Shown here one piece after another: positions 257-60,873 of a DNA stretch of 64,000 bases. This DNA is from Alphaproteobacteria bacterium. Lineage in GTDB: Bacteria; Pseudomonadota; Alphaproteobacteria; SP197. Numbering within the stretch: the first letter of the stretch is position 1; every line of letters starts with the position of its first letter. The DNA is taken from the NCBI GenBank assembly GCA_965215635.1, contig CBDCEA010000004.1, positions 308,897 to 372,896 on the forward strand, read 5' to 3'. The notes below the pieces were generated by a model that searched no databases, was not told the DNA's origin, and saw only the letters and a list, made by a program, of their open reading frames with translations. Both the position numbers and the translations under genes were made by a program.

Positions 257-649
257 ATGCCGGTTGCCTTCGTGTTCTATCACATTGGCGAACCGGCGTT
301 GACCGTAGTAGAACAGGGCATGGACGAGGAGGCGACGATGTACGAGATCGACCCTCAAAGAACCGACCTCGTGGAGGAGTTCTGGCGCAATCCCTCGGGC
401 CCCTACAGCCCCGAACTCAACTTGCTGGTGAACCGTCTTCGCCTGCTACCCATGGGGGAGCGCTTCATTCTGGTGACGGCCCGCAACGGAGGCGAATGGA
501 CGGTGGCCAGACTGCCGAATGAGAGAGGACGAGCGGTCGAACTCCTCGAAGACCGTGTGTTCGATGATTACAACGACGCATGCCGGGAGGTCTTTCGCCT
601 GCGTTGGCAGGCGATAACGGGCCTGGATCCAAGGGAGGATGACCGGTGA
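257..649 (+). CDS. putative small subunit of an N,N-dimethylformamidase-like amidohydrolase (130 aa); start codon uncertain
   Basis: 130-aa ORF whose TGA overlaps the GTG start of the large-subunit gene by 4 nt (GTGA at 646-649). Size and position match the roughly 15-kDa alpha subunit of two-subunit DMFases. No signature motif recognised; the start at 257 has no Shine-Dalgarno and lies only 13 nt from the divergent gene start at 243. Confidence 0.4.
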   Translation: MPVAFVFYHIGEPALTVVEQGMDEEATMYEIDPQRTDLVEEFWRNPSGPYSPELNLLVNRLRLLPMGERFILVTARNGGEWTVARLPNERGRAVELLEDRVFDDYNDACREVFRLRWQAITGLDPREDDR

Positions 650-5479: not shown

Positions 5480-5524
5480 ATCGGGGACCGGACGTCTCCG
5501 GTCGCCGGGACACCCAGGCGACAT

Positions 5525-5983
5525 TCAGGCTTTCCTCTTCGTTCGGGATGGCAAGGACGGGCCCAGGGTTTCGATCAGGCGCCACAGGCCCCCCGATTCG
5601 AAATGTCGGGTCCCTTCCGGGAATGCACGCCCGTCAATGCCCTCCATGCGAACAGTCAGGATCGGATGACCGCCGGGCCGGGTGAGGTGCGCCAGTTTCC
5701 TGAATTCGCAATCGGGTGCATGGCTGATGCCGAAGGCGCCGGTCGATACTACGGCACCGAAACGGCCATCCAGGATGTCGATGGGTGCCGCCAGATCGGC
5801 GCAGTGAAACCCGCTGTAGACCTTGTGGTGTTCTGCGAGCGCAAGCGTGCCTTCGGACATGTCGAGGGCCTCGAGATCACCGTATCCGGCGAGCATCAGC
5901 CGTTCGTCCAGAAGCCCGGTGCCCGCGCCGGCATTGAGGGCACCTTTTCCGGTCGCCACGTGACGTGCCGTGAGCACGGTCAC
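5525..5983 (-). CDS. class I SAM-dependent methyltransferase, N-terminally short (152 aa); probably frameshifted, with the N-terminus continuing in the ORF 5980..6285 frame
   Basis: Motif I-like ALNAGAGTG only 16 aa from the ORF start, then FGAVVSTGAFGISHAPD and RPGGHPIL. The upstream ORF 5980..6285 (-) ends 3 nt away in another frame. Confidence 0.4.
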   Translation of the reverse strand: MTVLTARHVATGKGALNAGAGTGLLDERLMLAGYGDLEALDMSEGTLALAEHHKVYSGFHCADLAAPIDILDGRFGAVVSTGAFGISHAPDCEFRKLAHLTRPGGHPILTVRMEGIDGRAFPEGTRHFESGGLWRLIETLGPSLPSRTKRKA

Positions 5984-6340
5984 GAGGCCCGGCAGCCTGA
6001 AACCGCATCATAGGCCCAGATGTCGTGGCTTTCGCGCAGTTCCCCGGCGTCGCGCGGATGGCAGTTCCGTTGCAGCAGTTCCTCGCGTGAAAGGTCCATG
6101 GTGTCCCTGACCTGGTGACAAGGGTGCAACGAGACCGGAATCTCATGCTCCGCCCGACGATCCCACTTGCGAGGATCGCTGTGGTTCCTGGACTCTGGCA
6201 CATCCAGGTCCTTCAATGCCACCAGCGCGAAACAGCAAGGGCAGGGAAGCGCTCCCTGCGCGGATGAATTACCGACGTTGATCAATCGAGCACCGCACCT
6301 GTACTATTTCCTGCCATGATGCATCGAGGAGAGATTCAAG

Positions 6341-7484
6341 ATGACCAAGATCATGCCTGTTGACGAGTTCTCGGATGCGTTGGCCAAGAAGGCGTTGACG
6401 AGGAGGGATGTGGCCAGGACTCTGGCCGGCGTGGGTGTTGCAACCGTGACGATGCCGTTCATCCAGCGGCCGGCCATGAAGTGAGGACGACTGGCTCTTT
6501 CTCTTTACCTGGAACGGTTACGAGCTCCCGGAGCTCCATCCGGCGTTCACGGACAAGTACGGTCGTGAACCCGTTTCCTCGTTCTATGCCGACAACGACG
6601 AGGCACTGGAAAAGATCCGTGCAGGCTTTCTGGCCGACATCGTCTGCCCCAGCGGCAGCACCGTGATCCGGTGGATTCACGCCTGCCTGGTCGAACCGAT
6701 CGACACGAGTCGGCTTACGCACTGGCCCGACATCTTCGATCAACTCAGGAATATCCGCGGCACGACCGACGACAACGGCAATCACTATTACGCCCCTTGG
6801 TCCTGGGGCAATTCGTCCGTGGTGTTCCGTCCCGATCTGGCACCCGAGTACTCGGGCAAGGAGAACCATACCTGGAAAATCCTCTGGGATCCCAAGTATG
6901 CCAACAGGGTGGCCATGCGCGACAACTGGGCGGGCACCACCATTCCGGCCGGCCTGATCGCCGGAGTCGAGGATCCCTTCGCGATGACCGACGACGAGAT
7001 CGAGGAAGTCCGGAAACTCCTTCAGGAACAGCGCGGTCTCAACCGTTTCTACTGGGCGAGCGAGGTCGATGCCCAGTCTGCCCTGGCGACCGGGGAGATT
7101 GTTGCCATGTATGCCTGGAACTCTGCCTACGCCACACTCAAGGCCGAGGGAATTTCGGTGGAATACATGGTGCCGAAAGAAGGTCTGCTGACCTGGGTGG
7201 ATGGTCACGTGCTGCTCAACACGTATGTGGGAACCGAAGAGCAGCGTTACGACTATCTCGATGCCACACTGGCACCGGAAGTCGGGGTCTTCATGATCGA
7301 GGAGTACGCCTATGGCGCCTGCAATGCGAAGTCCTATGACATGGCGAACAGAGCCATCGTAGAAAATCTCGGTTTCGAGGATCCCGAGGCGATCCTTTCC
7401 GGAAGCCTGTGGTTCCAGACCGTGCCGCCGGACATCCAGCGCAAGCTCGTCAACCTGCACGACGAAGTCCTGGCTGGCATTTGA
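6341..7484 (+). pseudogene. PotD/PotF-like periplasmic substrate-binding protein (TAT signal), paralog 1 of 4, disrupted by a frameshift near 6480
   Basis: ATG at 6341 with GGAGAG 8 nt upstream gives MTKIMPVDEFSDALAKKALTRRDVARTLAGVGVATVTMPFIQRPAMK, then stops. The +1 frame continues SEDDWLFLFTWNGYELPELHPAFTDKYGREP...DWGNSSVVFRPDL... to 7484. Both parts align end to end with the intact paralog at 40214..41368. Confidence 0.65.
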
Positions 7485-8007
7485 ATTCCTGTGATCTGCT
7501 GATCGACAACTACGGCCCGGCAATCGGTTGCGTCGCGACCGGTTGCCGGGCCCTGCATGTCTGCTGTCTCCTGCCCATGAATGGAAACCCGGGATGGCAT
7601 TCGGACTCGACATTCTTCCCGGCGATGCCGTGGATCGATCGGGAGCAGAGATCGTCACCGGCTTCGTTCCTTTCCGGATGCCTCTAACGGTTCATCAGCG
7701 AGGCCCCAGTCCGGCGTCGACCGGGCAGAGCGCCTTGTCTTCGGCAAGCCCGGGCTTAAGAACGGTTCGCATCCACGGCCTCCTCGCCGTGGCGGACCAC
7801 CGGCTGTTTCCCCGCTGATCCAGCCATCTCTTTGGCGCAAGTGAGCTGATCGAGTCCCCAGGCGGCGAAACGGCGCAGTGCTTCCATGTCGATGACGGTC
7901 CTTGGCCCGCCTCGCCGCGCAAGTGGCAGGCCTGCTCCAGATGAACGTCATGGTGGCAGGAACAGATATCGCGGCCGACAGCGGCTCCACACTCGTGGTT
8001 AGCGGCA

Positions 8008-8062
8008 GCCATGAATGGGAAGGGGACTGGCTTCCTCTCGATGATGAGGTGGTTCAGTTGGT
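8008..8062. repeat. about 50-bp short repeat element, copy A (copy B at 10178..10232)
   Basis: gccatgaatgggaaggggactggcttcctctcgatgatgaggtggttcagttggt versus gccatgggcgggaaggggactccctcttgatgacgaggtggttcagtcggt, about 85 % identical. Both copies flank urease-related DNA. Confidence 0.6.
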
Positions 8063-8090
8063 GAGGCCGGGATTGCCATCACTCGGGGCG

Positions 8091-8575
8091 GGTGCTCGGC
8101 TGCGTAATCGGGGCCATGCTGGTCGACATGGAACCAGGGCCCGATCACGACTTTCTGGGGATCGGGCAGATTGGCCCACCACAGCAGTGTGTCCCTCGGG
8201 AACATGTCGAACCAGCCGGCGAGGTGATAGATGGGGATACCGCTTTCCGCGATCTCCCGAAGGCAGCCATTGGGACTGCGCGTGGCGTGAAGGCATTCGC
8301 CGCTGATCGAATCGCGGCTGCCGCGGTAGGGCACGTTCAGCAGCATCCGGTACCAGTCGAGGTTCGCGCGATGTTCGCGCCTGGCCTCCTTGAGTAACTC
8401 CGTGGCGACATCGTCATCGACCGGGGCCGCAGGACCCTGGTACGAACCGCGCCATATCATCAGCGAGGCTGCGTTGTCTCCCATCGCGGACCAGACAATG
8501 AGCCCTCCCTTGATGACCTGTTCCGGCTTGATCCTGAAGAATCCGAGCCGCCAGAGAACGATATCCGCGAACTCC
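8091..8575 (-). pseudogene. chimeric gene fragment: a 370-bp copy of an internal piece of the CocE/NonD gene (equivalent to 4469-4843) fused to a 120-bp copy of an internal piece of ureC (equivalent to 10745-10865)
   Basis: Direct nucleotide comparison shows about 93-95 % identity to both source segments. The junction lies at a shared tcatc (catatcATC|agcgag). ORF 7999..8643 (-) translates as urease-alpha-like ...[33 protein letters not shown] followed by CocE-like [45 protein letters not shown]... Confidence 0.85.
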
Positions 8576-8715
8576 GCGATTGGCTCACCGAGCGCAGATG
8601 CGATCCGGTGAGCCCGCCCAATTCCACACGCGACAACCGTCACCCATCAGGAAGCAACGGCAAGGGACGGGCACCGCAGGGCCCGCCCTTCCGAATGTTC
8701 AGAACGCGAGGCGGC

Positions 8716-9846
8716 TCAGAAACCGGCCTTCACCTCGTCGAACTTGATGATCATCTTTTCCCGGATATCCGAGGGAATTTCGTCGTAAAAGTTGCCTTGG
8801 GCCATCAACGCGACAGGATCGAGGATCCCGAGGGATTCCAGGATCTCGGAATCGATCAGATCGTAGGTGTTCTTGTTCGAATGCCCATAGCCATAGGCCT
8901 CGATCAGATACTTGCCTGCGCGCGGTTCCATGGCGGCATTGAGGTAGTCATAGACCAGGCCGTCGGCCGCTTCGCCGCTGCTGCCAAGCGAGAAGCCGCA
9001 GATCCAGGTCATGATGCCCTCCTTCGGGTTCATGTAGGCCACGGGGATGCCCTGGTTCTTGAGATCTATGATAGAACTGTTCCATGACCAGGCCGCGATC
9101 AGCTCACCAGCCGCCATCGCCTGCTCGAACTCGGTAGGCGAAGCCCAGTAGAAGCGCACGTTGGCATGGAGCCTCCGCACTACCTCGGTGGCGCGCTTGA
9201 TCTCCTCATCAGTCATCGCGAAGATGTCCTCGGCGCCAATCAGCAGCGCACCCACCGCGTAACTCGAATCGACCGAATCGAACATGGAAATCTTGCCCTG
9301 CAGTTCGGGCCTGAGGAGGACATCGTAGGACATTTCGTCCTCGGTGAGCGGAAGCAGGTCCGTGCGGTAGAGGATCGAACTGTTCCCCCAGTCCCACGGC
9401 ATGAAGTAGAATTCACCATCGATCTTCACGCCGCGGATCTCCAGCGTTGTGGGGAAGATATCGCCCCAGGCGTCGATGCGGGTGTGGTCGACCGGGCGCA
9501 GGGCGCCGGCGTCCTTCCAGCGCGCGACCGAGCCGCTGCAGGGATGGGTGATGTCTGTCGGAAATCCCGCCCGCATCTTCTGGAGTGCTTCTTCCTCCTC
9601 GGCGAAGAGTGCGAAGTTGGGTTCTGTGCCGTACTTTTCGACATAGGCCGGATAAAATTCGGGAAGCTCGTATCCAGCCCATTCGAAGACCGCCAGCGAG
9701 GCGGGATCGCCGCTCTGTGCGAACGCGCGGCCCGCGCCGACTGTCACGAGACCGGCGGCCGCAAGGGTGCGGTGAAAGTCACGGCGCGAAATCTCGCCGC
9801 CGACGAGGTTGTCGACCAAACGGGTCGCCTTGGATTTCCGGTACAT
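8716..9846 (-). CDS. PotD/PotF-like periplasmic substrate-binding protein (TAT signal), paralog 2
   Basis: MYRKSKATRLVDNLVGGEISRRDFHRTLAAAGLVTVGAGRAFA (twin-arginine) followed by W(A/G)GYE.PEF and DWGNSSILYRTDL blocks shared with the other three paralogs. ATG at 9846 has GAGAGGA 6 nt upstream. Confidence 0.75.
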   Translation of the reverse strand: MYRKSKATRLVDNLVGGEISRRDFHRTLAAAGLVTVGAGRAFAQSGDPASLAVFEWAGYELPEFYPAYVEKYGTEPNFALFAEEEEALQKMRAGFPTDITHPCSGSVARWKDAGALRPVDHTRIDAWGDIFPTTLEIRGVKIDGEFYFMPWDWGNSSILYRTDLLPLTEDEMSYDVLLRPELQGKISMFDSVDSSYAVGALLIGAEDIFAMTDEEIKRATEVVRRLHANVRFYWASPTEFEQAMAAGELIAAWSWNSSIIDLKNQGIPVAYMNPKEGIMTWICGFSLGSSGEAADGLVYDYLNAAMEPRAGKYLIEAYGYGHSNKNTYDLIDSEILESLGILDPVALMAQGNFYDEIPSDIREKMIIKFDEVKAGF

Positions 9847-10177
9847 GTTTGCTCCTCTCAAAGCAATGTATCACTGATCGACGGTGCCTAAAACCAGTCC
9901 TTCTGTCAACCGACGGCCAGATGTTGATGGTTGGATTCGGTGCTGTTGGGGCGATTCGATCATGCGCCTTCTGGGGTTCAGTGTAACTCCGCTTATGCGT
10001 ACGCCATTGTAGGGCGTTTCTCTTTGGCGAGCGCGAATCCCGCCCGGCAACTGGGGCCCCGAAACGGCAATCGCAGGAGTCGACCCTCCGGGAAAAAGGG
10101 GAAGACCGATGGTCGACCAGGAAGCGAGTCTCAAAGGTACCTGTCCACTTCCGCCCGGGTATCGAGAGATTCCCGGT

Positions 10178-10232
10178 AGCCATGGGCGGGAAGGGGACTC
10201 CCTCTTGATGACGAGGTGGTTCAGTCGGTTCT
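10178..10232. repeat. about 50-bp short repeat element, copy B (see 8008..8062)
   Basis: See copy A. Lies in the approximately 560-bp non-coding, decayed-looking stretch downstream of ureC. Confidence 0.6.
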
Positions 10233-10436
10233 GCAATCATTCGCGGCGATTGCCTTTACACCCAGGCACGCTGTCTCGTTCCCTTATTGCCCTGGATGAA
10301 TGCGCCCCTTGCCGTCCGATGGCGTTGCGGGATTTTCGGTGAAGCCCCGGGCTACGAGATCTACGACGGTTCCCAAGAAGAGGTCAGAATCGGTTACCCC
10401 GGATCCTGTTCGGGCCATGGCCGAGCAGCTGTGGTG

Positions 10437-12149
10437 TCAGCGGAGCATGTAGAGCTGTGTCAGGGGCAACTCCCTAGCCGGTTCACAGGTCGCCAGTTCG
10501 CCGTCCACAAAGACTTCGAAGGTATTGGGATTAACCTCCACATCGGGGCAGGTATCGTTGTGCAACATATGGGACTTGTTGAGTTTTCTCACGCCGCGCG
10601 CAGCCAGGACGGATTTCGACAGTCCAAGCTTGCCTGCAACATCAGCATCGACGGCGCGCTGATTGACGAAGCATGCAGAAAGAGCCTTGCCGGCTTCACC
10701 GAACGCACCCCATTGCGGGCGCATCAGGACCGGCTCGCACGTCATCAGCGAGGCTGCGCTGTCTCCCATCGCAGACCAGACAATGAACCCTCCCTTGATG
10801 ACCAGTTCCGGCTTGATCCCGAAAAATCCGGGCCGCCAGAGAACGATATCCGCGAGCTTTCCGTCTTCGAGTGATCCGACATAGGCATCGATCCCGAACG
10901 TTCTTGCCGCATTGATCGTGTATTTCGCAAGGTAGCGACGGATCCGGAAGTTGTCTCCTCGCGCGGTGGTCTCCTCCCCGAGGCGGCCGCGTTGATTCTT
11001 CATCTTCGATGCGAGTTGCCAGGTTCGGCAGATCACCTCACCTATGCGCCCCATGCCCTGACTGTCGGATCCCAGCATCGATATGGCGCCGATATCGTGC
11101 AGAACATCTTCGGCAGCCATGGTCTGGGGTCGAATCCGGCTTTCGGCAAAGGCGACATCCTCCGGAACAGCCGGATTGAGATGATGGCAAACCATCGTCA
11201 TGTCGAGATGCTCATCGAACGTATTGATGGTGAAAGGATTCGTGGGGCTGGTGGACGATGGCAGGCAGTTCATTTCACCGGTCACACGGATGATGTCCGG
11301 GGCATGACCGCCGCCCGCTCCTTCCGCGTGATACATGTGTATGGTGCGTCCGTTGATGGCTTCAAGAGTATCGTTGAGGAAACCGCTTTCGTTGAGCGTG
11401 TCGGTGTGAAGCTGCACCTGGAAGTCCAGTTCGTCGGCGACCTTCAGGCAACAGTCGATCACGGCAGGCATCGCCCCCCAGTCCTCGTGTATCTTCAACC
11501 CGAGGCAGCCACCGGCGAGCTGCTCGGGTAGCGAGTGCGGTCTGGAGGAGTTACCACGACCAAGAAAGCCGAAATTGATGGGCCAGTGTTCGGCCGCCTG
11601 CAGCATCTTTCCGACATTCCATGCTCCGCCACAGTCGATGCCCACAGTGATGGGCCCCAACGATCCGCCGATCATGGTTGTGACGCCGGCCGAAAGGGCG
11701 TGTTCACACAACTGTGCGGAGTCGAAGTGCACATGCGCATCGATGCCGCCAGGCGTGGCGATCAGACCCTCGGCATCGCGGACCGTGGTCGAAACTCCGC
11801 ATACGAGTCTCGTGTCGACTCCGTCCATGACCGCCGGGTTGCCGGCTTTCCCGATGCCGGCAACTCGGCCATCCTTGATGCCGATGTCTCCCTTCACCAC
11901 CCCCAGAACCGGGTCCATGACCACTACGTTGCAGACCAGCATGTCCAGTGCACCCGAGGAACTGTCATAGCCCGCGGTCAGACCCATTCCGTCGCGCAGC
12001 GTCTTGCCTCCTCCGTGAAGACACTCGTCTCCCGGAACGGCGTGATCGTGCTCTATCTCCGCGAGGAGTGACGTGTCGCCGAGACGCACCGCATCTCCGG
12101 AGGTTGGTCCGTACATGGTGGCGTAGTCTTTACGGGACATTGTGGCCAT
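10437..12149 (-). CDS. ureC: urease alpha subunit (UreC), 570 aa
   Basis: All canonical active-site elements are present: HVHFDSAQL (His-x-His), GLKIHEDWG (carbamylated Lys), [23 protein letters not shown] and [15 protein letters not shown] Shine-Dalgarno 7 nt before the ATG. Confidence 0.95.
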
Positions 12150-12152
12150 GAT

Positions 12153-12848
12153 TCATGCTCCCCTGAAACCGCGCGACCGGGCACGCCGCAGAGCTTCCGC
12201 CTTTCTCGCTTCGTTGCGTGTGGAACCGTCCGTCAGGTTGTTGAGTCCGACGATTTCTCCCGTCCCGCCGAACGTCACCAGGTTCACCTGTTTGCTTTCG
12301 CCGGGCTCAAAGCGGACCGCGGTTCCGGCCGGAACATCGAGATGCAGACCGAATGCCTTTTCCCTGTCGAAGTTGAGGGCACGATTGGTCTCGAAGAAAT
12401 GGTAGTGACTGCCGACCTGAATCGGACGATCTCCGGTATTGGTGACAACAAGGGTCACTTTCTCACGACCGGCATTGAGTTCGATGTCGCCGTCGGCCGT
12501 CATGACCTCGCCCGGAACAGTTCCGGCTGCCGGCTCCTCTTCACCCGGTCGAATGGGATCATGAACCGTCACGAGTTTGGTGCCGTCCGGGAACATTGCT
12601 TCGACCTGGACAATAGGAACGAGCTCGGCGACACCCGGCATCACATCGCCCCTGTTGAGAATCGTCGACCCGAAACTCATCAGTTCGGCGACCGTACAAC
12701 CGTCGCGGGCTCTCTCGAGAATCGCGTCGCAGATTAGCGCAACAGCCTCCGGATGATTGAGTTTCACGCCCCTTGCACGTCTTCGCCGGGCTATTTCAGC
12801 CGCAGTGAAAATTGTCAGGCGTTCCATTTCGGTAGGAGTCAGCAACAT
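12153..12848 (-). CDS. ureAB: fused urease gamma-beta subunit (UreAB), 231 aa
   Basis: N-terminal 100 aa match UreA ([39 protein letters not shown]). The C-terminal half matches UreB ([42 protein letters not shown]). The stop lies 3 nt before the ureC start. Confidence 0.9.
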
Positions 12849-12907
12849 TTGGAGTGCTCCTCAAGTTATTGCAGCGCGTCCTGCCACCACCTTCTTGTGG
12901 ACCATGC

Positions 12908-13945
12908 TCAAGCCGGCCGGGGACGCCTGATGGTCTGATCCACCACTTCGCCACGTGCCTTTGCCGCTGCCGCCATGAGCCGAAGCACGACACACACGGC
13001 GAGACGGGAGGTCGTTCCGCTGACGTCGAAAATCGGGCAGAGTTCGGAAATTTCGATGACGCTGGGGCCGCCACGCCGTCCCAGCGCGTCGGCGATCCGC
13101 ATCATCTCCCTTGATTCAAGACCGCCCGGTTCGGTGGCGGTGACGCCCGGAGCAACGGATGCATCCATGACATTGAGATTGAAGCTCAGATACTGCGCAT
13201 CGGTTCCGTTCCAAACACTCGTGGCCGCCTCGTCGACGACCGTATCGACACCGCGTTCGAGAGCTTCGAACATCGGGTGAAACCGCACATTCCTTTCTCT
13301 CGCGAGATCGATCCAGTCCTTGGGATTGAGGGAATTCCGGGCACCGACATGCCCGATATTGCCGGGGCTGACATTCGGCAATTCGCTGATCCTGGCCAGC
13401 GCGCAGGTACTGACCTCGCTTTCTCCCGCCCAACTGTCTGCAAGGTCGAGGTGCGCTCCGAAATGCAGATAGCCCATCTTCCGATGCTCGCCGATGTGAT
13501 CGGACAGTGCCCTGGTTGCGGGAATGGAAATCGATCTGTCACCGCCACAGATGATCGGTATGACGCCCGCGGCGAGAATTTCGCGTGTCGCATCGTAGAT
13601 ACGCTTGCGCGACAGCGCGGGATTCACTTTCGGCATCTGGATGTCGCCGCAATCGGCGCTGCTGCCGTTGAGATCGACCTGATACTCGAACCAGTAGGGA
13701 AAGTATTCCTGCGATGCCAGACGAAACTCCCTCGGTCCTTCATCGGATCCGGGTTTACCGACATTCCCTTCGTCGAACGGTGCGCCGACAAAGGCGTAAC
13801 GAACGCCCGCGGTACGCAATTGCTCCCGGTCGAGCGCGACGTGATCCGAGCGCATGAACGTGATCTGTCCGGGTGCCCGGTAGTTGACAGCGTCATCACC
13901 ACCCTGGGGCGAAAACAGATGTGCGTAGACCTTGGCTGGATTCAT
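12908..13945 (-). CDS. arginase/agmatinase-fold protein lacking 4 of the 6 canonical Mn-ligand residues (probable non-catalytic paralog), 345 aa
   Basis: Aligned by eye to the downstream paralog and to arginase-family motifs: GGDRS (expected GGDHS), GAHLD (expected DAHxD) and SFNLN (expected SxDxD). His101, Asp124, Asp232 and Asp234 equivalents are all replaced. Confidence 0.8.
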   Translation of the reverse strand: MNPAKVYAHLFSPQGGDDAVNYRAPGQITFMRSDHVALDREQLRTAGVRYAFVGAPFDEGNVGKPGSDEGPREFRLASQEYFPYWFEYQVDLNGSSADCGDIQMPKVNPALSRKRIYDATREILAAGVIPIICGGDRSISIPATRALSDHIGEHRKMGYLHFGAHLDLADSWAGESEVSTCALARISELPNVSPGNIGHVGARNSLNPKDWIDLARERNVRFHPMFEALERGVDTVVDEAATSVWNGTDAQYLSFNLNVMDASVAPGVTATEPGGLESREMMRIADALGRRGGPSVIEISELCPIFDVSGTTSRLAVCVVLRLMAAAAKARGEVVDQTIRRPRPA

Positions 13946-14000
13946 TTCTGGGCATTCCCTGAATTGTCGGAAGACTGAACGCGCATGCGAGGTGGAAGCG

Positions 14001-15068
14001 TCACGGCGCGGCGCCCTGTTCGCGCAGAGTCTTCGCGCGGCTTCCGAGGTAGTGGTAGATCATGCAGCATGCGAGCTTGATGCTCATCTGGCTGACATCG
14101 AAGATGGGACACAGCTCGGAGAGTTCGAGAATGTCCGCACCGTACGTGCCCGCAATGCGTGCGAGCTGGATGGCTTCCCTGGAATTGATGCCGAAACATT
14201 CCGGCGCCGTCGTTCCGGGCATGCAGCTGGCATCGAGAGAATCGGTGTCCCAGGAACAATAGACCGCGTCGGTCCCGTTCCAGGCGATGTCGAAGATTTC
14301 CTTCGTGCAGGCTTCCACGCCGCGCTCGACAACCTCCATCATGGGGATCAGACGGACATCGGTGTCGACGAAGAAATCGTACCAGTCCTTCGGATTGAGT
14401 CCGTTGCGAGAACCCATGTGCGCCATGTTGGCGCCGTCACAGTTTTCGAGATCAAATGCGCGGGACGGTCCGGAGCAGTTGGTGTTGCGGATGCCTCCCC
14501 AGTCCGGTGCCGAGTCGAGATGACAATCGATGTGAAGGTAGCCGATCCTGCCGTTCCTGTGGAAATCCGACAGCGCGCGTGCACCCGGAATGGGCGCGGA
14601 GTGGTCACCACCACAAAAGATGACTTTTGCCCCTCCTTCCAGGCACTCCGTGATGTACTGGTAAATGAACTCGTGAGAACGATCGTTGTTGCCGGGAACA
14701 ATGGGCACATCGCCGCAATCGACAGGCCTGAAGGTTTCGACCAGATCGACATCGTACTCGAACATGTAGGGAAAGTACTGGGAGGACGCCTCCCTGAGGC
14801 CGGCTGGACCGGAAGACGTGCCGGAACGGACCATCTGGCCCTGATCCCAGGGAACACCGAGGAAGCAGATTTTCGCTCCCATGGCGCGGATCGCCTTGCG
14901 GTCCGGCGGGCAGTAGGGCGCTCCCATGAAGGTGGCAATTCCCGGAGATTTCAGCGTGCCGTTGTGCAGGCGTGGTGACCGGATGTGATCGTCCGGGCGC
15001 GTGTGTTCCTGCGGGCCCTGATGCTGGTGCGGCACGAAACTCCAGGCCGTCGTTGCGCCTTGTGTCAT
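14001..15068 (-). CDS. arginase/agmatinase-family ureohydrolase with a complete metal-ligand set, 355 aa
   Basis: GGDHSAP, HIDCHLDS (D-x-H-x-D) and SWDTDSLDASCMPG (S-x-D-x-D) are all present. Shares the C-terminal ELSELCPIFDVS block with the upstream paralog. Confidence 0.8.
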   Translation of the reverse strand: MTQGATTAWSFVPHQHQGPQEHTRPDDHIRSPRLHNGTLKSPGIATFMGAPYCPPDRKAIRAMGAKICFLGVPWDQGQMVRSGTSSGPAGLREASSQYFPYMFEYDVDLVETFRPVDCGDVPIVPGNNDRSHEFIYQYITECLEGGAKVIFCGGDHSAPIPGARALSDFHRNGRIGYLHIDCHLDSAPDWGGIRNTNCSGPSRAFDLENCDGANMAHMGSRNGLNPKDWYDFFVDTDVRLIPMMEVVERGVEACTKEIFDIAWNGTDAVYCSWDTDSLDASCMPGTTAPECFGINSREAIQLARIAGTYGADILELSELCPIFDVSQMSIKLACCMIYHYLGSRAKTLREQGAAP

Positions 15069-15259
15069 TGTATTCCCCAGGCTGTTTGCCGATCGGCGCC
15101 GGCACGTTCCGATGCCGGGTAGTCGTCATCGGCGTCAAACTCCGGCTCGACTGTCGAGACCTGCATTTCACGACCGGTCACGACTTCCCGAGTCGCCATG
15201 CAGCAGACGCTGTACATGTCCTTAGCCTTCGTTCTTCGAGTCCGAATTCATGACGTCAA

Positions 15260-16078
15260 TCACATGTGTTCCCTGTTGGGACTTTCCTCCCGCATCATGT
15301 GCATGATGTGCCGCTCGAGATCAGAATAGCCCGGCAAACCTATCACGACTTCCTTGTCCGGGATTCGGTTCCCGGACTTGAACTCTGTGGTGAGGTTTTC
15401 CCGGATCCGTCCCGGATGCCGGGACATGAAGAGAATCCGGTCGGCGAGGAAAATCGCTTCCTCGATGTCATGCGTGACCAGGAGAACCGTGGTGCGTGAC
15501 GACTCCATGATGTTCAAGAGCAATTCCTGCATCGTCCAGCGCGTTTCCGCATCAAGGGCGCCGAACGGCTCGTCCATGAGGAGCATGGAGGGACTGTTCG
15601 CCAATGTTCTGGCGATGGCGACACGCTGCTTCATGCCTCCGGAAAGTTGTGTCGGATAGGCATCGCGGAACTTCTCCAACTGGACCAGGGAAATGAATTG
15701 GTCGGCCCGGTCCTTGCGTTTCTTCCTCGGCACGCCATTAAGTCGCATGCCGTATTCGACGTTCTCCTGGACCGTCAGCCAATCGAACGACGTATAGGAC
15801 TGAAAGACCATGCCACGATCCCCGCCGGGACCATCGATCCGCCGTCCATCGATCGTGAGTATACCTTCCGTCGGTTCCTCGAGGCCTGCAGCCATGCGCA
15901 GCACCGTCGACTTGCCACACCCGGAAGGGCCGAGCAGGACGCAAAGCTCGTTGTCGACAACATCGAAAGACACATCGACGACCGCATCGATGGTACCGTG
16001 CGCGGTGGAAGGAAATGACTTGGAGACCTGCGATACCGACAACTTTGGTCCAGCGATGGTCTTCGTGTACCCGTTCAT
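15260..16078 (-). CDS. ABC transporter ATP-binding protein, NitT/TauT (nitrate/sulfonate/taurine-type) family
   Basis: Walker A GPSGCGKST, signature LSGGMKQRVAIARTL, Walker B LLMDEPFGALD. Size and domain order match SsuB/TauB-like proteins. Start at the internal ATG (MNGYTK...) because the longer ORF would overlap the upstream substrate-binding-protein gene by 45 nt and uses TTG. Confidence 0.75.
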   Translation of the reverse strand: MNGYTKTIAGPKLSVSQVSKSFPSTAHGTIDAVVDVSFDVVDNELCVLLGPSGCGKSTVLRMAAGLEEPTEGILTIDGRRIDGPGGDRGMVFQSYTSFDWLTVQENVEYGMRLNGVPRKKRKDRADQFISLVQLEKFRDAYPTQLSGGMKQRVAIARTLANSPSMLLMDEPFGALDAETRWTMQELLLNIMESSRTTVLLVTHDIEEAIFLADRILFMSRHPGRIRENLTTEFKSGNRIPDKEVVIGLPGYSDLERHIMHMMREESPNREHM

Positions 16079-16170
16079 TCCGGCGACCGTCAGGCTTCCA
16101 TCGATGCGGTTGGCATCGTGACCGGCCGGAGAAACCCGTCGGCCGGTCACATGGCGACGCTGTTCCGGTG

Positions 16171-17241
16171 TCAGCCCCCGTAACCGGACTCGTACAGGTC
16201 GGTCAGCAGGGAACAATCGGTACCTTCAGACGGATCAACTTCTTCCGACATCTGGCCGAACTTGATCCACCATTCGTTCGTCATGCGCCAATGATCGGCT
16301 ATCTGTCCGTTGGTCTGCCCGAAAGGCGGATCACCGGGCGCCGAACCGCAGAATCTGGCGGTTTCCATGAATGAATAGGGATACAGTCCGCCATCTTTAC
16401 CGGTCCCGTCCTTGCCGATCACGAGTTCCACGTCTTCCACAGACATCTTCATCCTGCGGGCGATGATTTCATTGCCCTCAGTCGGATTTTCACTCCACCA
16501 GGCGATCGCGTCGTAGAGCGCCGTCATGGTCTTGAGGGCGACGTCCCTGCGCTGCTCGATGAAGCTGGCGTTCATGAAAAGTGCATCCGCAATGAGCGCA
16601 TTCTGCAACCAGAAGGGTTCCCGCGAGTGAGCGGCGAGTCTTGTATTCGGCCTGGCTTCCAGAACCTGTGTTCCGAAGGGATCCCAGAATTCGGCCGCTG
16701 CAACATCCCCGCCGATCATGGCGGATGCCGCGTCATCCATGATCAGGTTGACATATTCGACCTGATCGTACGCAACACCGTTCTGTTCCAGCCAGATGGC
16801 CATGTAGAGCTGAGCGAGTCCACCCTCGAGCACCGCGACTTTCTTGCCGACGAGATCCGCGGCACTCTCGATGCCCGGGCTTACAACGATCTTGTCCGTT
16901 CCGTAGGATATGTTGCCGTAGGCGACAAGCTTGACGGGTATGCCTTCCGCAGCTGCAATGGGAGCGAACTCGATCGTGCTCGAGACGACGTCGAGCTGTC
17001 CGGCCGCCGCAAGGGCAAATGTCTGGAAGGGATCCTCGATGGCCTCGTAGCTGATCTCGAGGTCCGGGGCCAGACCCACTTCGTCCGCAATGAACCAGAA
17101 GCCGTAGCCGGGCCACGTCAGGCCGGCGATACGGACTTCCTCGGCCGCCTGAACACGGTTCGATGACACGGCGCACAGCGCCACGCTCACCAGCACTGCA
17201 ACTGAAACAACTTTCAAACTTCCAACAAGCCTGCCGGTCAT
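16171..17241 (-). CDS. ABC transporter substrate-binding protein, NMT1/THI5-like (NitT/TauT family), Sec signal peptide
   Basis: MTGRLVGSLKVVSVAVLVSVALCAVSSNRVQAAEE signal peptide, then an NMT1-type fold. GAGGGA Shine-Dalgarno 8 nt upstream of the ATG at 17241. Confidence 0.75.
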   Translation of the reverse strand: MTGRLVGSLKVVSVAVLVSVALCAVSSNRVQAAEEVRIAGLTWPGYGFWFIADEVGLAPDLEISYEAIEDPFQTFALAAAGQLDVVSSTIEFAPIAAAEGIPVKLVAYGNISYGTDKIVVSPGIESAADLVGKKVAVLEGGLAQLYMAIWLEQNGVAYDQVEYVNLIMDDAASAMIGGDVAAAEFWDPFGTQVLEARPNTRLAAHSREPFWLQNALIADALFMNASFIEQRRDVALKTMTALYDAIAWWSENPTEGNEIIARRMKMSVEDVELVIGKDGTGKDGGLYPYSFMETARFCGSAPGDPPFGQTNGQIADHWRMTNEWWIKFGQMSEEVDPSEGTDCSLLTDLYESGYGG

Positions 17242-17266
17242 GGCGGTCTCCCTCAAATGGTCACAA

Positions 17267-18067
17267 TCAACGCTCCCGTTCATCAAGGTATGGGAACAAC
17301 CAGCGATGTGCAACACGGAACAAGTAATCGAACAGGAGCCCGAGCAGGCCGATGACAATGATGCTCGCCATGATCTTGTCGACGTGGAGGAATCGCTTGG
17401 CGCGCATCATGACGGCACCGATACCTGTGGTTGCCGCCACGATTTCGGCGATCACCAGATAGGTCCAACTGACGGCGAGCATTTGCCGCATGGCAACCAC
17501 AATGTCGGGCATGGCGGCAGGCACGATGACTGTTCTGAGGATCTGCCAGCGGTTTCCTCCCAGTGTCATCGAGGTCTCGATGAGCTCGGTGCGCACGGAC
17601 TTGACGTGATCCATGATCAGCGTGATCAGAAACCAAAGCACTCCGATGAAGAGAAGGGCGATTTTCTGCTCGTCGCCGGTGCCGAACCACATCAGCAGAA
17701 GAGGGATGAAGGAAGGTGCCGGCAGATAACGCCAGGCCGAAACCAGCGGGTTCAAGAAGGCTTCAATCCGGCGGAACGATCCCATCAGGATACCCAGCAC
17801 GACGGCAACCAGGCATGCAGCCCCGAAACTGACCACGATCCGGTAGATGCTGATGCCTATGTCGAGCAGATAGTCGCCGCTCGTCAGAAGGGAATGGAGC
17901 GTCAACAGCACCACGTAGGGCGACGGCATGAACATGGCATCGACCCACGCCAGGGATACCGCAATTTCCCACAACGCAAAGAAAATCAGCCATATGGCTG
18001 TGCCGAGCATGATGATCGTGCTGAGCGGGATGGTTGACTTGAACTCCAGCCAGCGTCGTCTGTACAT
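17267..18067 (-). CDS. ABC transporter permease, NitT/TauT family
   Basis: Six predicted TM segments and the EAA-like loop region (…TSMTLGGNRWQILRTVIVPAAMPDIV…), typical of BPD_transp_1 permeases. Start ambiguous (ATG at 18067, 18142 or 18172; none has a good Shine-Dalgarno). Confidence 0.7.
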   Translation of the reverse strand: MYRRRWLEFKSTIPLSTIIMLGTAIWLIFFALWEIAVSLAWVDAMFMPSPYVVLLTLHSLLTSGDYLLDIGISIYRIVVSFGAACLVAVVLGILMGSFRRIEAFLNPLVSAWRYLPAPSFIPLLLMWFGTGDEQKIALLFIGVLWFLITLIMDHVKSVRTELIETSMTLGGNRWQILRTVIVPAAMPDIVVAMRQMLAVSWTYLVIAEIVAATTGIGAVMMRAKRFLHVDKIMASIIVIGLLGLLFDYLFRVAHRWLFPYLDERER

Positions 18068-18234
18068 GGGACGGGTTCCGGATAGGTCTGCTTGCAGATG
18101 GACCGAAGCCGCAGGCTGAACCAGGACGTGACTGCCAACCATGCGTTCTTCGGCAATACTGGTTCCGCGCATGTGATGTGGTCAAGCTTGAAGATGTTCG
18201 GGTTCCGGCGGTGTGTCGGAGCAGGGGGAATGGC

Positions 18235-19353
18235 ATGAGGATCCTGATCTGCGGTGGTGGCGTGATCGGCGCGTCGATCGCCTTTTTCCTGAGCCGGGCA
18301 GGGGCTGAAGTGATTGTCATCGAGCGGACCGGGATCGCCTGTGCGGCATCGGGCAAGTCCGGGGGATTTCTTGCTCTCGACTGGTGCGACGGCTCACCCC
18401 AGGGGGCGCTGGCCAGGCGCAGCTTCGCCCTACATGCGGAACTCACCCAAACCCTCAACGAGAACTGGGGATACCGCAGACTCGATACCCTGAACGTGGT
18501 CGCAAGCGCCCGCCGTAGTGTCGAGGCCTGGCGAAGGCAGGCATCGCCCGCGTGGCTCGCCCCGGAAGCGGCCGTTCATGCCAGGCTTGGAACGCGGGAT
18601 ACGACGGCACAGATCGACCCGGCTGCCTTCACGAAGGCCATGTTGAACGCCGCGCTCGCGTTGGGGGCCGAACTGCGCATTGGCACCGTGACGGGCGTCG
18701 CGCTGAATCGGAACGGATCGGCTGCAATGGGGGCGGTTGTCGACGGCAGGGTGGTGGAGGCCGATGCGCTTGTCATCGCCATGGGTCCCTGGTCCGAGCT
18801 GGCGCGCCAATGGTTGCCGTTACCGCCTGTTCACGGGCTGAAGAGCCACAGCCTCGTCCTTGGCTTCGAGCCGCCGGCTGGACCCGAAGCTCTCTTTGTC
18901 GAACTCGAGACGGCAGACGGCGACGCGGAGTCGCCGGAGGTGGTTCCGCGGCCCGACGGAACGACCTGGATCTGCGGCGTTTCGAGCACAACACCACTCC
19001 CTGAGGATCCGGCCGATGTCGTTGCAGACGACGGGGCCGTCGAGAAGCTTCGCGCCCTGGCCGGTCAGTTTGCGCCCGGGCTCGCCGAGGCCCCGGTTCT
19101 GGCATCCCAGGCGTGCTACCGGCCGTTCATCCGGGACGGCCTGCCGGTGATCGGTCTGGTTCCCGACGTCGAGAGAGCCTGGATTGCGACGGGGCACAGC
19201 GTGTGGGGCATGCTGAATGCGCCCGCCACAGGCGAGGCCATGGCCGACATGATCCTCCACGGTGAAACGCGAGCGGTCGATCTCGCCCCGTTCGATCCGG
19301 GGCGCATGGCTGCCGGTCAGCCGAAGACGGCTGTCGTGACTTCGGTTTCGTAG
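18235..19353 (+). CDS. FAD-dependent oxidoreductase (DAO/glycine-oxidase-like)
   Basis: N-terminal Rossmann motif MRILICGGGVIGASIAFFLSRAG...VIVIER. GGGGGA Shine-Dalgarno 6 nt upstream. Confidence 0.75.
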   Translation: MRILICGGGVIGASIAFFLSRAGAEVIVIERTGIACAASGKSGGFLALDWCDGSPQGALARRSFALHAELTQTLNENWGYRRLDTLNVVASARRSVEAWRRQASPAWLAPEAAVHARLGTRDTTAQIDPAAFTKAMLNAALALGAELRIGTVTGVALNRNGSAAMGAVVDGRVVEADALVIAMGPWSELARQWLPLPPVHGLKSHSLVLGFEPPAGPEALFVELETADGDAESPEVVPRPDGTTWICGVSSTTPLPEDPADVVADDGAVEKLRALAGQFAPGLAEAPVLASQACYRPFIRDGLPVIGLVPDVERAWIATGHSVWGMLNAPATGEAMADMILHGETRAVDLAPFDPGRMAAGQPKTAVVTSVS

Positions 19354-20114: not shown

Positions 20115-22886
20115 TCAGTGAACCTCTTCGGCGCCCGCAGCGGGTTCCACTCGCGCGGCGCAGAACTTGAACTCCGGTATCTTGCCGAAGGGGTCGAGTG
20201 CCGGATTGGTGAGTATGTTTGCAGCCGCCGTCTCATAGCAGAACGGTACGAACACCACGCCGGACTGGAGTCCTGCATCGGTGCGGACCTTCGCCTCGAT
20301 CGCCCCGCGTCTTGTCGAGATGCGAATGGCATCGCCGGGAGCGATGGCAAGGCGCCTCATGTCACCGGGTGCCATCATTGCCACGGCCTCGGGTTCGAGA
20401 CTGTCGAGCACGGTGGCACGGCGGGTCATCGCACCGGTGTGCCAGTGCTCGAGAAGCCGCCCTGTCGTCAGGATCATCGGGAAGGTCTCGTCGGGTGTCT
20501 CATCGGGCGGAATGATGTCCGCAGGCACCATGAGACCGCGTCCCGTCGGTGTCGGGAACGCGTCGGAAAAGACGATCTCCTGGCCAGGATCGTCTTCCGA
20601 ACTGCAGGGATAGATCACGGCATCCTCGCGGCTGACACGCTCCCACGAGATGCCTGCAATGGACGGCATGACCTGGCGCATCTCCTCGAAGATCTCGCCG
20701 ACGCTGCCGTAGGACCAGTCGCGTCCCAGACCCTGGGCGATCGACTGGATGATCTCCCAGTCCTGGCGCGCCTCGCCGGGAAGCGGCACCGCCTTGCGGC
20801 CACGCTGGACCTGGCGGTTGGTGTTGGTGGCTGTGCCGTCCTTTTCTGGCCACGCGCTCGCCGGCAGCACCACATCGGCGTGCATCGCGGTCTCGGTGAG
20901 GAAGAGATCCTGGACCACGAGATGATCGAGCTTCGCAAGGGCCTCGCGGGCATGATGTGCATCGGGATCCGACATCGCCGGATTTTCGCCCATGATATAC
21001 ATGCCCTTCATGGTACCGGCATGGACCGCGTTCATGATCTCGACCACGGTAAGGCCTGGCTTGTCGGAGAGTTCGGTTCCCCAGAACTCCCGGAAGCGTT
21101 GCCTGTTCGTCTCGTTGCTCACCGGTACGTAGTCCGGAAAACTCATCGGGATGAGCCCGGCGTCGGAGGCACCCTGGACATTGTTCTGTCCGCGCAGGGG
21201 ATGGAGGCCGGTTCCCTCGCGTCCCGTGTGGCCGGTCATCAGGGCAAGCGAAATCAGGCAGCGGGCATTGTCCGTGCCGTGGATGTGCTGGCTGATGCCC
21301 ATACCCCAGAAGATCATGGCGCGTTCGGCGCCTGCATAGGTCCGCGCCACCTCACGCAGGGTCTCTGCATCGACGCCGGTGACGGACTCCATCGCTTCCG
21401 GCGAGAAGGCCTTGAGATGATGCTTGAGTGCCTCGAAGCCTTCAGTCATCGCCTGGACGTACTGGGCGTCATGGAGACCTTCCTCGACGATGACGTGCAT
21501 GATGGCGTTCAGCATCGCGACATCCGCACCCGGCTTGAACTGCACCATGTGCGTGGCATGCCTGTTCAGGGCCTGACCGCGCGGATCCATCACGATGAGT
21601 CGGGTGCCGCGTTTCACTGCGTTCTTGAAGAACGTCGTGGCGACCGGATGATTTTCCGATGGATTGGCACCGATCACAATGATGCAGTCTGCCTTGAGCG
21701 CTTCGGTGAAGGGGGCTGTGACGGCACCCGATCCTATGCCCTCGAGCAGTGCGGCCACGGAGCTGGCGTGGCAGAGCCTTGTGCAGTGATCGACATTGTT
21801 GCTCCCGAATCCGGTGCGCACCAGCTTCTGGAAGAGGTAGGCCTCCTCGTTGGAACCCTTCGCCGAACCGAAGCCGGCGAGGGCATGACCGCCGTGGCCG
21901 TCGCGTATCGCGGCAAGGCCCGAGACCGCGACCGCGAGAGCCTCGTCCCAATCTGCCGCCCGGAAGTGGGTGAACGGATTGGAAGGATCGACCCATTCGT
22001 CGGCGCCCTTGGGGGCGTCGTCCCTGCGGATGAGCGGCCGGGTGAGTCGCTGGGGATCGTTGATGTAGTCGAAGCCGAAACGCCCCTTGACACAGAGCCT
22101 GCCGTGATTGGCCGGTCCTTCCTTGCCCTTCACCGCAACGATGCGATCCTCGTCGACCTGGTAGGTGATCTGGCATCCCACACCGCAATAGGGGCAGACA
22201 CTGTCCACCTCCTTCGCCGGTCCTGGCCGGCCGATTCCGTTGTCGTCCACAAGGGATTTCTCCATAAGCGCACCGGTCGGGCAGGACTGCACGCATTCAC
22301 CGCAGGCCACGCACGTCGATTCACCCATCGGATCGTCGAAATCGAACACGATCCTGGACTCGCGGCCACGCCACGCCATGCCGATGACATCATTGACCTG
22401 GATCTCCCGGCAGGCCCTCACGCAACGGTTGCAGTGGATGCAGGCATCGAGATTGATCGCCATGGCGGGATGGGAAAGATCGCTCGCGGGAGCGCTGCCG
22501 TGCCGCGGATAGCGCGAACTCTCGATACCCATCATCCGGGCCCAGTTCCAGAGTTCCGAGGACGAGGTGTGGGCTTTGGCCTCGGGCGGCTGGTCGGCGA
22601 CGAGCAACTCGAGCACGGTGGATCGTGATGCCTCGGCGCGCCTGCTCGCGCTGTGGACGGCCATGCCGGAGTGCGGCTGACGAATGCACGATGCCGCCAA
22701 CGTGCGTTCACCCTCGACCTCGACCATGCAAAGACGGCAGTTGCCGTCCGGCCTGTAGTCCTGCATTTCGGTATGGCACAGATGGGGAATCACCCGCCCC
22801 TGGCGTCTGGCCACCTGCCAGATCGTCTCGCCGGGCCGGGCGGTCACGGTCTGGCCATCCAGCGTGAAGGTGATGGGCTCACTCAC
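20115..22886 (-). CDS. fdsA: NAD-dependent formate dehydrogenase alpha subunit (FdsA/FdhF-type molybdopterin oxidoreductase), 923 aa, Cys-type
   Basis: N-terminal 2Fe-2S and 4Fe-4S Cys clusters (CHTEMQDYRPDGNCRLC, CIHCNRCVRAC, CVACGECVQSCP), the Mo-bisPGD domain with the VDHCTRLCHASSV active-site region (Cys, no TGA), and the C-terminal cap. Confidence 0.9.
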   Translation of the reverse strand: MSEPITFTLDGQTVTARPGETIWQVARRQGRVIPHLCHTEMQDYRPDGNCRLCMVEVEGERTLAASCIRQPHSGMAVHSASRRAEASRSTVLELLVADQPPEAKAHTSSSELWNWARMMGIESSRYPRHGSAPASDLSHPAMAINLDACIHCNRCVRACREIQVNDVIGMAWRGRESRIVFDFDDPMGESTCVACGECVQSCPTGALMEKSLVDDNGIGRPGPAKEVDSVCPYCGVGCQITYQVDEDRIVAVKGKEGPANHGRLCVKGRFGFDYINDPQRLTRPLIRRDDAPKGADEWVDPSNPFTHFRAADWDEALAVAVSGLAAIRDGHGGHALAGFGSAKGSNEEAYLFQKLVRTGFGSNNVDHCTRLCHASSVAALLEGIGSGAVTAPFTEALKADCIIVIGANPSENHPVATTFFKNAVKRGTRLIVMDPRGQALNRHATHMVQFKPGADVAMLNAIMHVIVEEGLHDAQYVQAMTEGFEALKHHLKAFSPEAMESVTGVDAETLREVARTYAGAERAMIFWGMGISQHIHGTDNARCLISLALMTGHTGREGTGLHPLRGQNNVQGASDAGLIPMSFPDYVPVSNETNRQRFREFWGTELSDKPGLTVVEIMNAVHAGTMKGMYIMGENPAMSDPDAHHAREALAKLDHLVVQDLFLTETAMHADVVLPASAWPEKDGTATNTNRQVQRGRKAVPLPGEARQDWEIIQSIAQGLGRDWSYGSVGEIFEEMRQVMPSIAGISWERVSREDAVIYPCSSEDDPGQEIVFSDAFPTPTGRGLMVPADIIPPDETPDETFPMILTTGRLLEHWHTGAMTRRATVLDSLEPEAVAMMAPGDMRRLAIAPGDAIRISTRRGAIEAKVRTDAGLQSGVVFVPFCYETAAANILTNPALDPFGKIPEFKFCAARVEPAAGAEEVH

Positions 22887-24586: not shown

Positions 24587-24689
24587 GAAACTCCTCTTCC
24601 CCGGCAAGAGGGGCGAATGGACGGGGCGCGGGAACATGCCCCATGACGCGCCGGGTGTCACCCCCCGATGGGGATTTGCCCGGCGCCGT

Positions 24690-39640: not shown

Positions 39641-40213
39641 TTCGTGTTGGAAGCGTAGAACACCGTTTTGGCCGCGCAGGACACTTTCTTTTGGCGGGAC
39701 CTAGCCGCCTGCCTCTGGTGTTGGACTAAGGCCAGAGACACACATCCAGCAACCGGCTTGGTCAAAAGCTAGGAATTGCGCATGCGCAGAAAGGGGCGAG
39801 GGGGGTTGGCGCCCCTTACCTTGACGGTCTCCAAAACCCAAGCGCTGCGAGAGGATGACGCCAAACGCAGAGCTTGTGTCGTGGAATGCCTGTATGAAGG
39901 ATTTGAATAGTTTCTCTCGGGGTCAGCGAGGCAAGCGATTGGCATTGGCAGGTCTTTCTGTTCGAACAATTGAGAAAGTGTCATTGTCCTCACCTGGTGT
40001 CCTGTCTCACAGAGAAGGTTCGAAAGCCGAGCGAGTTTTTCGAAGATGGAATCAACCGTTGCCGTCCATTTGAAGGGGACGCGATGTGCGACATGTCTGG
40101 CAGATTCCACAAGTCTCCTTTGATTCCGCACCTTGGACAAGTCACAGGGAAGTTGGTAGCGTCAGGACCAGCATGAGTGGAAAGTTTCGCTCATCCAATA
40201 TAGGAGGATCACA

Positions 40214-51319: not shown

Positions 51320-51360
51320 ATTCTGCTTGACGTGCACAGCCTGACTGTCCAGATTGCCAT

Positions 51361-51425: not shown

Positions 51426-51480
51426 GATCTTCTGGGATAAGACCGGACCCCGGGCGGGTATCGGCAAGGAAGATCAGGCC

Positions 51481-60836: not shown

Positions 60837-60873
60837 GCCATGCAAGACTCGCTTCCGGCTGGCGGGCTGCGCC

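Follow-up and report, generated by a model that had tools for sequence, protein, structure and literature searches.

We found that two adjacent arginase-fold genes on the reverse strand of a 64,000-nucleotide (nt) stretch from an Alphaproteobacteria bacterium (contig CBDCEA010000004.1, positions 308,897 to 372,896; hereafter the window, with coordinates counted from its first letter) probably encode the catalytic, di-nickel alpha subunit and the metal-free, pseudo-enzyme beta subunit of a heteromeric ureohydrolase of the MefH/DmgH family, with N,N-dimethylguanidine hydrolase (DmgH) as the most probable activity. The locus as a whole is most likely a member of the DmgH branch that lies within a reduced urease operon carrying an ATP-binding cassette (ABC) importer. 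An initial annotation of this DNA had proposed a hetero-oligomeric ureohydrolase with a degenerate, non-catalytic partner, and had regarded the arrangement as uncharacterised. The proposal is right for the family, as judged by homologs that are 64-66% identical to the window proteins (PMC11399263, PMC11271267). The arrangement itself is already known: the structure and biochemistry of heteromeric nickel ureohydrolases have been on record since 2024, in three papers on metformin hydrolase, named MefH, MfmAB or MetCaCb (PMC11399263, PMC11271267, PMC10927577), five PDB entries (8RYI, 8SNF, 8SNK, 8SP2 and 8X3G) and a published survey of paired arginases. The window pair adds a family member, not a concept.

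An intact and a degenerate metal site

The alpha gene (14001..15068, reverse strand; 355 amino acids, aa) precedes the beta gene (12908..13945, reverse strand; 345 aa) on the same strand, the tandem order seen in the MefH/DmgH family. Read directly from the sequence, the spacer between them (13946..14000, reverse strand) measures 55 nt, and not 53 nt as first given. Both open reading frames (ORFs) matched the Pfam family Arginase (PF00491; E 3.6e-50 and 5.8e-57), and the two proteins are 39.8% identical to each other. In a MAFFT alignment with the crystallised MefH subunits, alpha, a protein of the DmgH-alpha kind, carries the motifs GGDHS, D-C-H-L-D and S-W-D-T-D, which make up the full six-ligand binuclear metal site of the arginase fold; its ligands H156, D181, H183, D185, D274 and D276 correspond to H158, D183, H185, D187, D276 and D278 of MefH-alpha. 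The non-catalytic beta subunit, also of arginase fold, reads GGDRS, G-A-H-L-D and S-F-N-L-N in the same alignment, with four of the six ligands replaced (His101 by R, Asp124 by G, Asp232 by N and Asp234 by N, in rat arginase numbering) and the equivalents of His126 and Asp128 kept, giving R/G/H/D/N/N at the ligand positions.

The alignment with crystallised subunits therefore reproduces the ligand assignment of the initial annotation, which had named a register error as the way in which its reading could fail; no such error was found. Among the 120 best beta homologs, RGHDNN is the commonest pattern, with 87 cases, and the intact HDHDDD pattern is present in 100 of the 106 matches of the alpha search that entered the alignment (at least 300 aa). 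A C-terminal block noted earlier as common to both proteins is indeed present in each (SELCPIFDVS; alpha LELSELCPIFDVS, beta IEISELCPIFDVS), with differences at synonymous sites. Gene conversion was considered as the origin of this block and rejected, as five of its ten codons differ synonymously and the overall third-position identity is 0.36.

Comparison with solved structures places both proteins in the heteromeric family. The best PDB matches of alpha were subunit A of metformin hydrolase (8X3G, 8SNF, 8RYI; E ~1e-170, near full length), with 570 bits as compared with 234 bits for subunit B and at most 144 bits for any other chain. Those of beta were subunit B (8RYI, 8SNF, 8SNK, 8SP2, 8X3G; E 5e-157, residues 1-341), with 525 bits as compared with 211 bits for subunit A. 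In the MAFFT alignment, the identity to the corresponding MefH subunit was 65.5% for alpha and 63.9% for beta. By these sequence comparisons, window alpha belongs with the alpha proteins and window beta with the beta proteins, and neither with the single-gene ureohydrolases, in agreement with a neighbour-joining (NJ) tree. Among the latter, GdmH (Synechocystis Sll1077; PDB 7ESR/7OI1) and agmatinase-like ureohydrolases have the arginase fold and were the next-best PDB matches (E ~1e-40), but they are encoded by single genes that lack a degenerate partner. NCBIfam (release 20.0) holds no model specific for MefH or DmgH; alpha scored below the cut-offs of the models for agmatinase (110 vs 174 bits), formimidoylglutamase (hutG; 98 vs 229 bits) and arginase (49 vs 228 bits), and beta likewise remained below the cut-offs for these three families.

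The crystallised enzymes offer a direct template for the window pair. MefH/MfmAB/MetCaCb is a Ni2+-dependent alpha2-beta4 heterohexamer in which two Ni2+ ions are bound by alpha only; the subunits are inactive singly, alpha is poorly soluble without beta, and beta has explicitly been termed a pseudoenzyme binding partner (PMC11399263, PMC11271267). The first 23 residues of beta close off the alpha active site as a cap, and two beta residues, Y22 and F82, help to wall its pocket (PMC11399263, PMC11271267). In their survey of 56 paired arginase genes, Li et al. found three to five ligand substitutions in the beta clade, and the four in window beta fall within this published range for the MetCb clade; the same authors purified three more pairs, with alpha subunits 61.7-93.8% identical to MetCa, and obtained each of them as a heterohexamer. 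The window pair shares the fold, the alpha metal ligands and a metal-free beta with these enzymes. The MetCa pocket residues Q80, W192, N199 and E320 are kept at the aligned positions of window alpha, and MetCb Y22 and F82 are present in window beta, whose first 25 residues are mostly unchanged among 30 diverse homologs. MefH-beta differs in having five of its six ligands replaced (RGQDNN), as compared with four in window beta.

Substrate specificity and the three clades

Hydrolysis of dimethylguanidine to dimethylamine and urea is considered the ancestral and more widespread activity of the family (Sinn et al. 2024, PMC11399263). It was shown for the enzymes of Aminobacter niigataensis DSM 7050 and of Hyphomicrobium, which are ~70% identical to each other and neither of which hydrolysed metformin; DmgH genes cluster with urease, which the authors took as support for dimethylguanidine as the native substrate (PMC11399263). 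Alpha positions 184 and 288-290 have been linked to substrate specificity (PMC11399263). Window alpha reads C at position 184 and T-T-A at 288-290, as does the tested Hyphomicrobium DmgH (HVZ03923), while MefH reads C and N-S-A and Aminobacter DmgH reads S and S-T-S. The Hyphomicrobium signature was taken from the trimmed alignment in the source data of PMC11399263 (294 columns), over which the identity between the window and Hyphomicrobium DmgH pairs is 79% for alpha and 72% for beta. The Hyphomicrobium sp. SMAG_U6089 genes (HVZ03923/HVZ03924; PMC11399263) are also tandem alpha-beta arginase-fold genes, they belong to the same NJ clade as the window genes, and their beta has a similarly degenerate ligand set (GGDRS / GAHLD / SFNFN).

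The gene neighbourhood points in the same direction. A fused urease gamma/beta subunit gene, ureAB (12153..12848, reverse strand; Pfam Urease_gamma and Urease_beta; NCBIfam NF009671 at 363.7 bits, cut-off 243), begins 59 nt past the beta stop codon, and is followed by the urease alpha subunit gene ureC (10437..12149, reverse strand; TIGR01792 at 800.5 bits, cut-off 680), whose product carries the nickel-site motifs, including GSDSQGMGR. A urease encoded directly 3' of the pair fits urea as the hydrolase product. The window is a further case of dmgH-type genes joined to a urease operon, and it supports urea release from methylated guanidine as the ancestral role of the family.

To place the pair among its relatives, one genome per GTDB species was scanned with a beta profile, yielding 80 loci (numbered L001 onward) from Alpha- and Gammaproteobacteria, mostly metagenome-assembled genomes (MAGs), plus Aminobacter and Pseudaminobacter. 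The closest GTDB species (~90% identity) are unclassified Alphaproteobacteria MAGs. Co-occurrence of the degenerate and the active paralog in other genomes, a point raised by the initial annotation, proved to be the rule: in 79 of the 80 species, beta is immediately preceded by an alpha gene in the same orientation (truncated by the end of the contig in L058). A 1.9 kb insert separates alpha from beta in L010 (8126..10000), and L015 alone has no alpha gene in the 10 kb that precede its beta (upstream of 10001).

An NJ tree of 78 alpha proteins and references resolved three monophyletic clades that coincide with the residue signature (position 184 / positions 288-290) and with gene context. The C/TTA clade (39 terminals) includes the window and the tested Hyphomicrobium DmgH; most of its loci have an NMT1-type ABC transporter upstream, and a urease adjoins the pair in 25 of 38. 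Its sister clade (13 terminals; S or A at position 184 with STS, and C/NSA) holds the Aminobacter DmgH type and MefH, and has hypB-hypA upstream. The third clade (29 terminals; C/TSC or C/TTC) appears to have no tested members and consistently features hypB-hypA and a PotD-type ABC transporter, in most cases together with a TetR regulator. No urease was found within 10 kb of the pair in the two clades other than C/TTA. The survey thereby brings out a third alpha/beta clade, marked by C/TSC, a PotD-type transporter and no urease.

Within this framework, the nearest relative of the tested Hyphomicrobium enzyme in the survey (L035; 93% identical) sits within a urease operon, as the window pair does, but it has hypB-hypA upstream and ureE-ureF and ureG-ureD around ureAB-ureC, where the window retains a hypA relic only. 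Aminobacter niigataensis DSM 7050 DmgH (PMC11399263) resembles the window enzyme in its alpha/beta heteromeric make-up and, according to the authors, in a urease downstream of its cluster; it differs in clade, in signature (S184 / S-T-S) and in context (TetR-hypB-hypA-alpha-beta-hupE, L084). Window alpha is 66% identical to the ortholog of Aminobacter AP02.

A strict metformin hydrolase of the MefH/MfmAB/MetCaCb type, releasing guanylurea and dimethylamine, appears extremely improbable. The best PDB matches bear that name, and window alpha has Cys184 and Ala290 as in MefH-alpha, but the MefH-specific N288-S289 reads T-T in the window, MefH lies in a different clade of the NJ tree, and the Hyphomicrobium enzyme with the same C/TTA signature is without metformin activity (PMC11399263). 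Metformin activity was ~20,000-fold lower or absent in MetCaCb-like pairs at 71% and 62% identity. In addition, the adjoining urease suits the release of urea, whereas metformin yields guanylurea (PMC11399263), and the known MefH proteins are near-identical to each other, recently evolved (PMC11399263) and plasmid- or transposon-borne.

Four points weigh against assigning the window pair to dimethylguanidine hydrolysis. The closest enzyme with a tested activity shares ~79% (alpha) and 72% (beta) identity with the pair over the trimmed alignment, and the residues linked to specificity in the literature give no clean division between the activities, Cys184 and Ala290 being common with MefH and Thr289 with Aminobacter DmgH. 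Dimethylguanidine has no known natural source (PMC11399263), such that the physiological substrate could be another guanidine compound. Further, no hypA/hypB or ureD/E/F/G gene lies within the 64 kb window, so that function depends on chaperones encoded elsewhere, and an Aminobacter metAB (hypAB) mutant was unable to grow on metformin (PMC11271267).

The third of these points bears on a second alternative, which keeps the alpha/beta architecture and gives it another urea-yielding guanidine as native substrate, with dimethylguanidine a mere in vitro surrogate. We consider this unlikely. In its favour, the Michaelis constants reported are millimolar (from 2 to 60 mM according to buffer; PMC11399263), the NMT1/SsuA-type binding protein encoded upstream of the pair has no specific family assignment, and the alpha family falls into three clades with different transporters. 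On the other side, of 14 guanidine compounds screened on MefH, only metformin and dimethylguanidine were turned over (PMC11399263). The two ~70%-identical DmgH enzymes that are both specific for dimethylguanidine bracket the window protein in the tree, and Aminobacter grows on dimethylguanidine as its sole source of carbon, nitrogen and energy (PMC11399263).

By analogy with the solved homologs, the putative dimethylguanidine hydrolase would act as follows. One alpha and two beta subunits would assemble into a trimer, and two trimers into an alpha2-beta4 hexamer; beta would keep alpha soluble, with its N-terminal ~23 residues capping the alpha active site and forming the substrate entrance. 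A substrate presumably imported by the upstream NMT1-type ABC transporter would be split by alpha into dimethylamine and urea, and the UreAB-UreC urease, encoded directly downstream, would then convert the urea into ammonia and CO2.

Several genomes in the survey carry two alpha/beta pairs from different clades (L006/L063, L008/L064, L010/L065, L011/L022, L018/L038 and L032/L055), which suggests substrate diversification. The C/TSC and C/TTC clade comprises L024-L027, L030, L038-L041, L043, L044, L047, L050, L054, L056, L061, L063-L065, L068 and L070, as well as L073, L074, L076, L077, L079, L081, L083 and L085, with alpha at ~8.9-10.0 kb in the full-length loci. In L068, two alpha/beta pairs occur in tandem on one strand (4500..6635 and 8866..11026). 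An exact copy of beta (P0121) turned up on ENA metagenome contigs alone, and tblastn found alpha genes 99-100% identical to that of the window on the same contigs (L001-L005). A protein database search with alpha gave no match above 86% identity, which probably reflects a limit of the search index and not biology.

Purifying selection and missing nickel chaperones

The initial annotation had assumed that beta is under purifying selection and had named an unexpressed, decaying duplicate as the alternative. The ratio of non-synonymous to synonymous divergence (dN/dS), measured against three orthologs of ~90% identity (L006-L008), was 0.056-0.082 for beta, 0.042-0.046 for alpha and 0.048-0.063 for ureC. 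The synonymous divergence (dS) in these comparisons is ~0.75-1.2, with that to L008 (~0.75) being the most reliable; the NMT1 and ATPase genes were left out, since part of their ratios could not be relied on, with mechanically assigned ORF starts that are too long and a nonsensical 1.77 in one comparison. Beta is under selection as strong as alpha. The assumption is thus borne out by measurement, and the decaying duplicate is ruled out by the dN/dS of beta together with the alpha-beta tandem in 79 of 80 species.

The structural subunits of the urease exceed their curated cut-offs, yet the window holds no accessory gene for it: genes for HypA, HypB, HupE and UreD/E/F/G were all undetected in the 64 kb by tblastn (E <= 1e-4) and by Pfam scans of 39 ORFs. 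About 70 of the 80 surveyed loci have an intact hypB-hypA pair a short way upstream of alpha, most often immediately adjacent to it, and most urease-linked loci follow the order hypB-hypA-alpha-beta-ureE-ureF-ureAB-ureC-ureG-ureD. In the window, ureAB directly follows beta, with no intervening ureE-ureF. Upstream, a 50-codon ORF that overlaps the alpha start codon (15065..15217, reverse strand; overlap ATGA) aligns locally with HypA of locus L009 (CGMPTPKVVTGREMQVTAIE vs CCMATREVVTGREMQVSTVE), with a score of 74; shuffled sequences scored 22.9 +/- 3.9 and none of 2000 reached 74. Going by this alignment, the ORF is a 3' relic of hypA, and the hypB-hypA pair has been deleted in the window.

These observations could be taken to mean that the cluster is a decaying remnant, in which both nickel enzymes, the ureohydrolase and the urease, would stay immature for want of hypB-hypA and ureEFGD, and beta would be an inert duplicate. 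The hypA relic upstream of alpha and the lack of nickel chaperone genes across the 64 kb would agree with this, as would a chimeric ureC/Peptidase_S15 pseudogene scar just downstream of the operon (8092..8577, reverse strand, inside the ORF 7999..8643). The scar, detected by tblastn, joins 40 aa with 80% identity to UreC residues 430-469 (8458..8577) to 123 aa with 93% identity to residues 230-352 of an S15 peptidase encoded 4 kb away (3647..5524), and looks like the product of a rearrangement. All five enzyme genes are nevertheless intact, and dN/dS is 0.04-0.10 at a dS of ~0.75-1.2, including in the comparisons with L006 and L008, the closest relatives, which have the same compact layout without nearby chaperone genes. 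The low ratios in these chaperone-less relatives imply that the compact form has long been kept under selection. Further, the genomes of L006 and L008 hold a second alpha/beta pair with hypB-hypA elsewhere (L063 and L064), which could act in trans, and co-expression of chaperones in E. coli made no significant difference to the activity of MetCaCb (PMC11271267). A decaying remnant is therefore highly improbable: the lineage lost its cis-encoded nickel chaperones, yet all five enzyme genes stay under selection.

As the window holds no nickel-insertion genes, such proteins must come from elsewhere in the genome, and chaperones acting in trans are the likeliest source of nickel for the window enzymes. 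We also entertain, as a rather doubtful possibility, a more specific scenario in which the window, L006 and L008 together maintain a stripped-down, chaperone-less cluster (ABC transporter, alpha, beta, ureAB and ureC). Its enzymes would either share chaperones encoded elsewhere (e.g., the hypB-hypA of a second, C/TSC-clade pair) or be loaded without chaperones or with another metal, and its native substrate may be an as yet unidentified natural methylated guanidine in a widespread marine and soil clade.

Transporter genes and flanking regions

Upstream of alpha, three genes on the reverse strand encode the ABC transporter. The first gene of the cluster encodes a permease (17267..18067; Pfam PF00528, BPD_transp_1, E 6.4e-22), called with a length of 266 aa on identical contigs from metagenomes, and most loci of the C/TTA clade share its syntenic position upstream of alpha. 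It is followed by a gene for a periplasmic substrate-binding protein of the NMT1/SsuA type (16171..17241; Pfam NMT1 and NMT1_2), which adjoins alpha-beta in most C/TTA-clade loci; its NCBIfam matches were all sub-threshold, to SsuA_fam and to a putative urea ABC binding protein, and it presumably serves as the receptor through which the guanidine substrate is taken up. The ATPase gene (15260..16078; Pfam ABC_tran, E 1.6e-32) completes the set.

A gene for a PotD/PotF-like solute-binding protein (8716..9846, reverse strand; Pfam SBP_bac_8) lies 3' of ureC, and its membership of the operon is uncertain; its NCBIfam scores for PotF/PotD were far below the cut-offs. It is one of four such paralogs in the window (38-46% identical), the others being located at 6450..7481, 40196..41365 and 57206..58306, all on the forward strand, and most of the four lack adjacent permease or ATPase genes.

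With respect to regulation, no guanidine riboswitch or other riboswitch controlling the operon was detected with Rfam at the gathering threshold, where the only matches in the window were a SAM-alpha riboswitch and a group II intron, both away from the operon. Scans of positions 8000..19000 for promoters and terminators were uninformative, with one promoter-like site as compared with 3.5 expected, and 14 terminator-like sites as compared with 8.3 +/- 3.1 expected, none of them at gene ends.

The cluster is flanked by a gene for an N,N-dimethylformamidase beta-subunit-like protein (646..2853, forward strand) and by one for a molybdopterin formate dehydrogenase with a NuoF-like subunit (20115..24661, reverse strand), hinting at a methylated-amine or C1 lifestyle. 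Genes for dimethylamine catabolism or oxidation were not found in the window by tblastn or by the Pfam scans of the 39 ORFs.

Farther away, a group II intron D1-D4 domain was detected at 60674..60891 (reverse strand; Rfam, 115 bits, E 6e-32), and the adjoining 439-aa ORF (59008..60327, reverse strand) may be the intron-encoded protein. A SAM-alpha riboswitch (51354..51433, forward strand; 71 bits), of a type that fits an alphaproteobacterial origin, was found directly 5' of a gene for a pyridoxal phosphate-dependent enzyme of Cys/Met metabolism (51418..52665), which is followed by a homocysteine S-methyltransferase gene (52781..53737).

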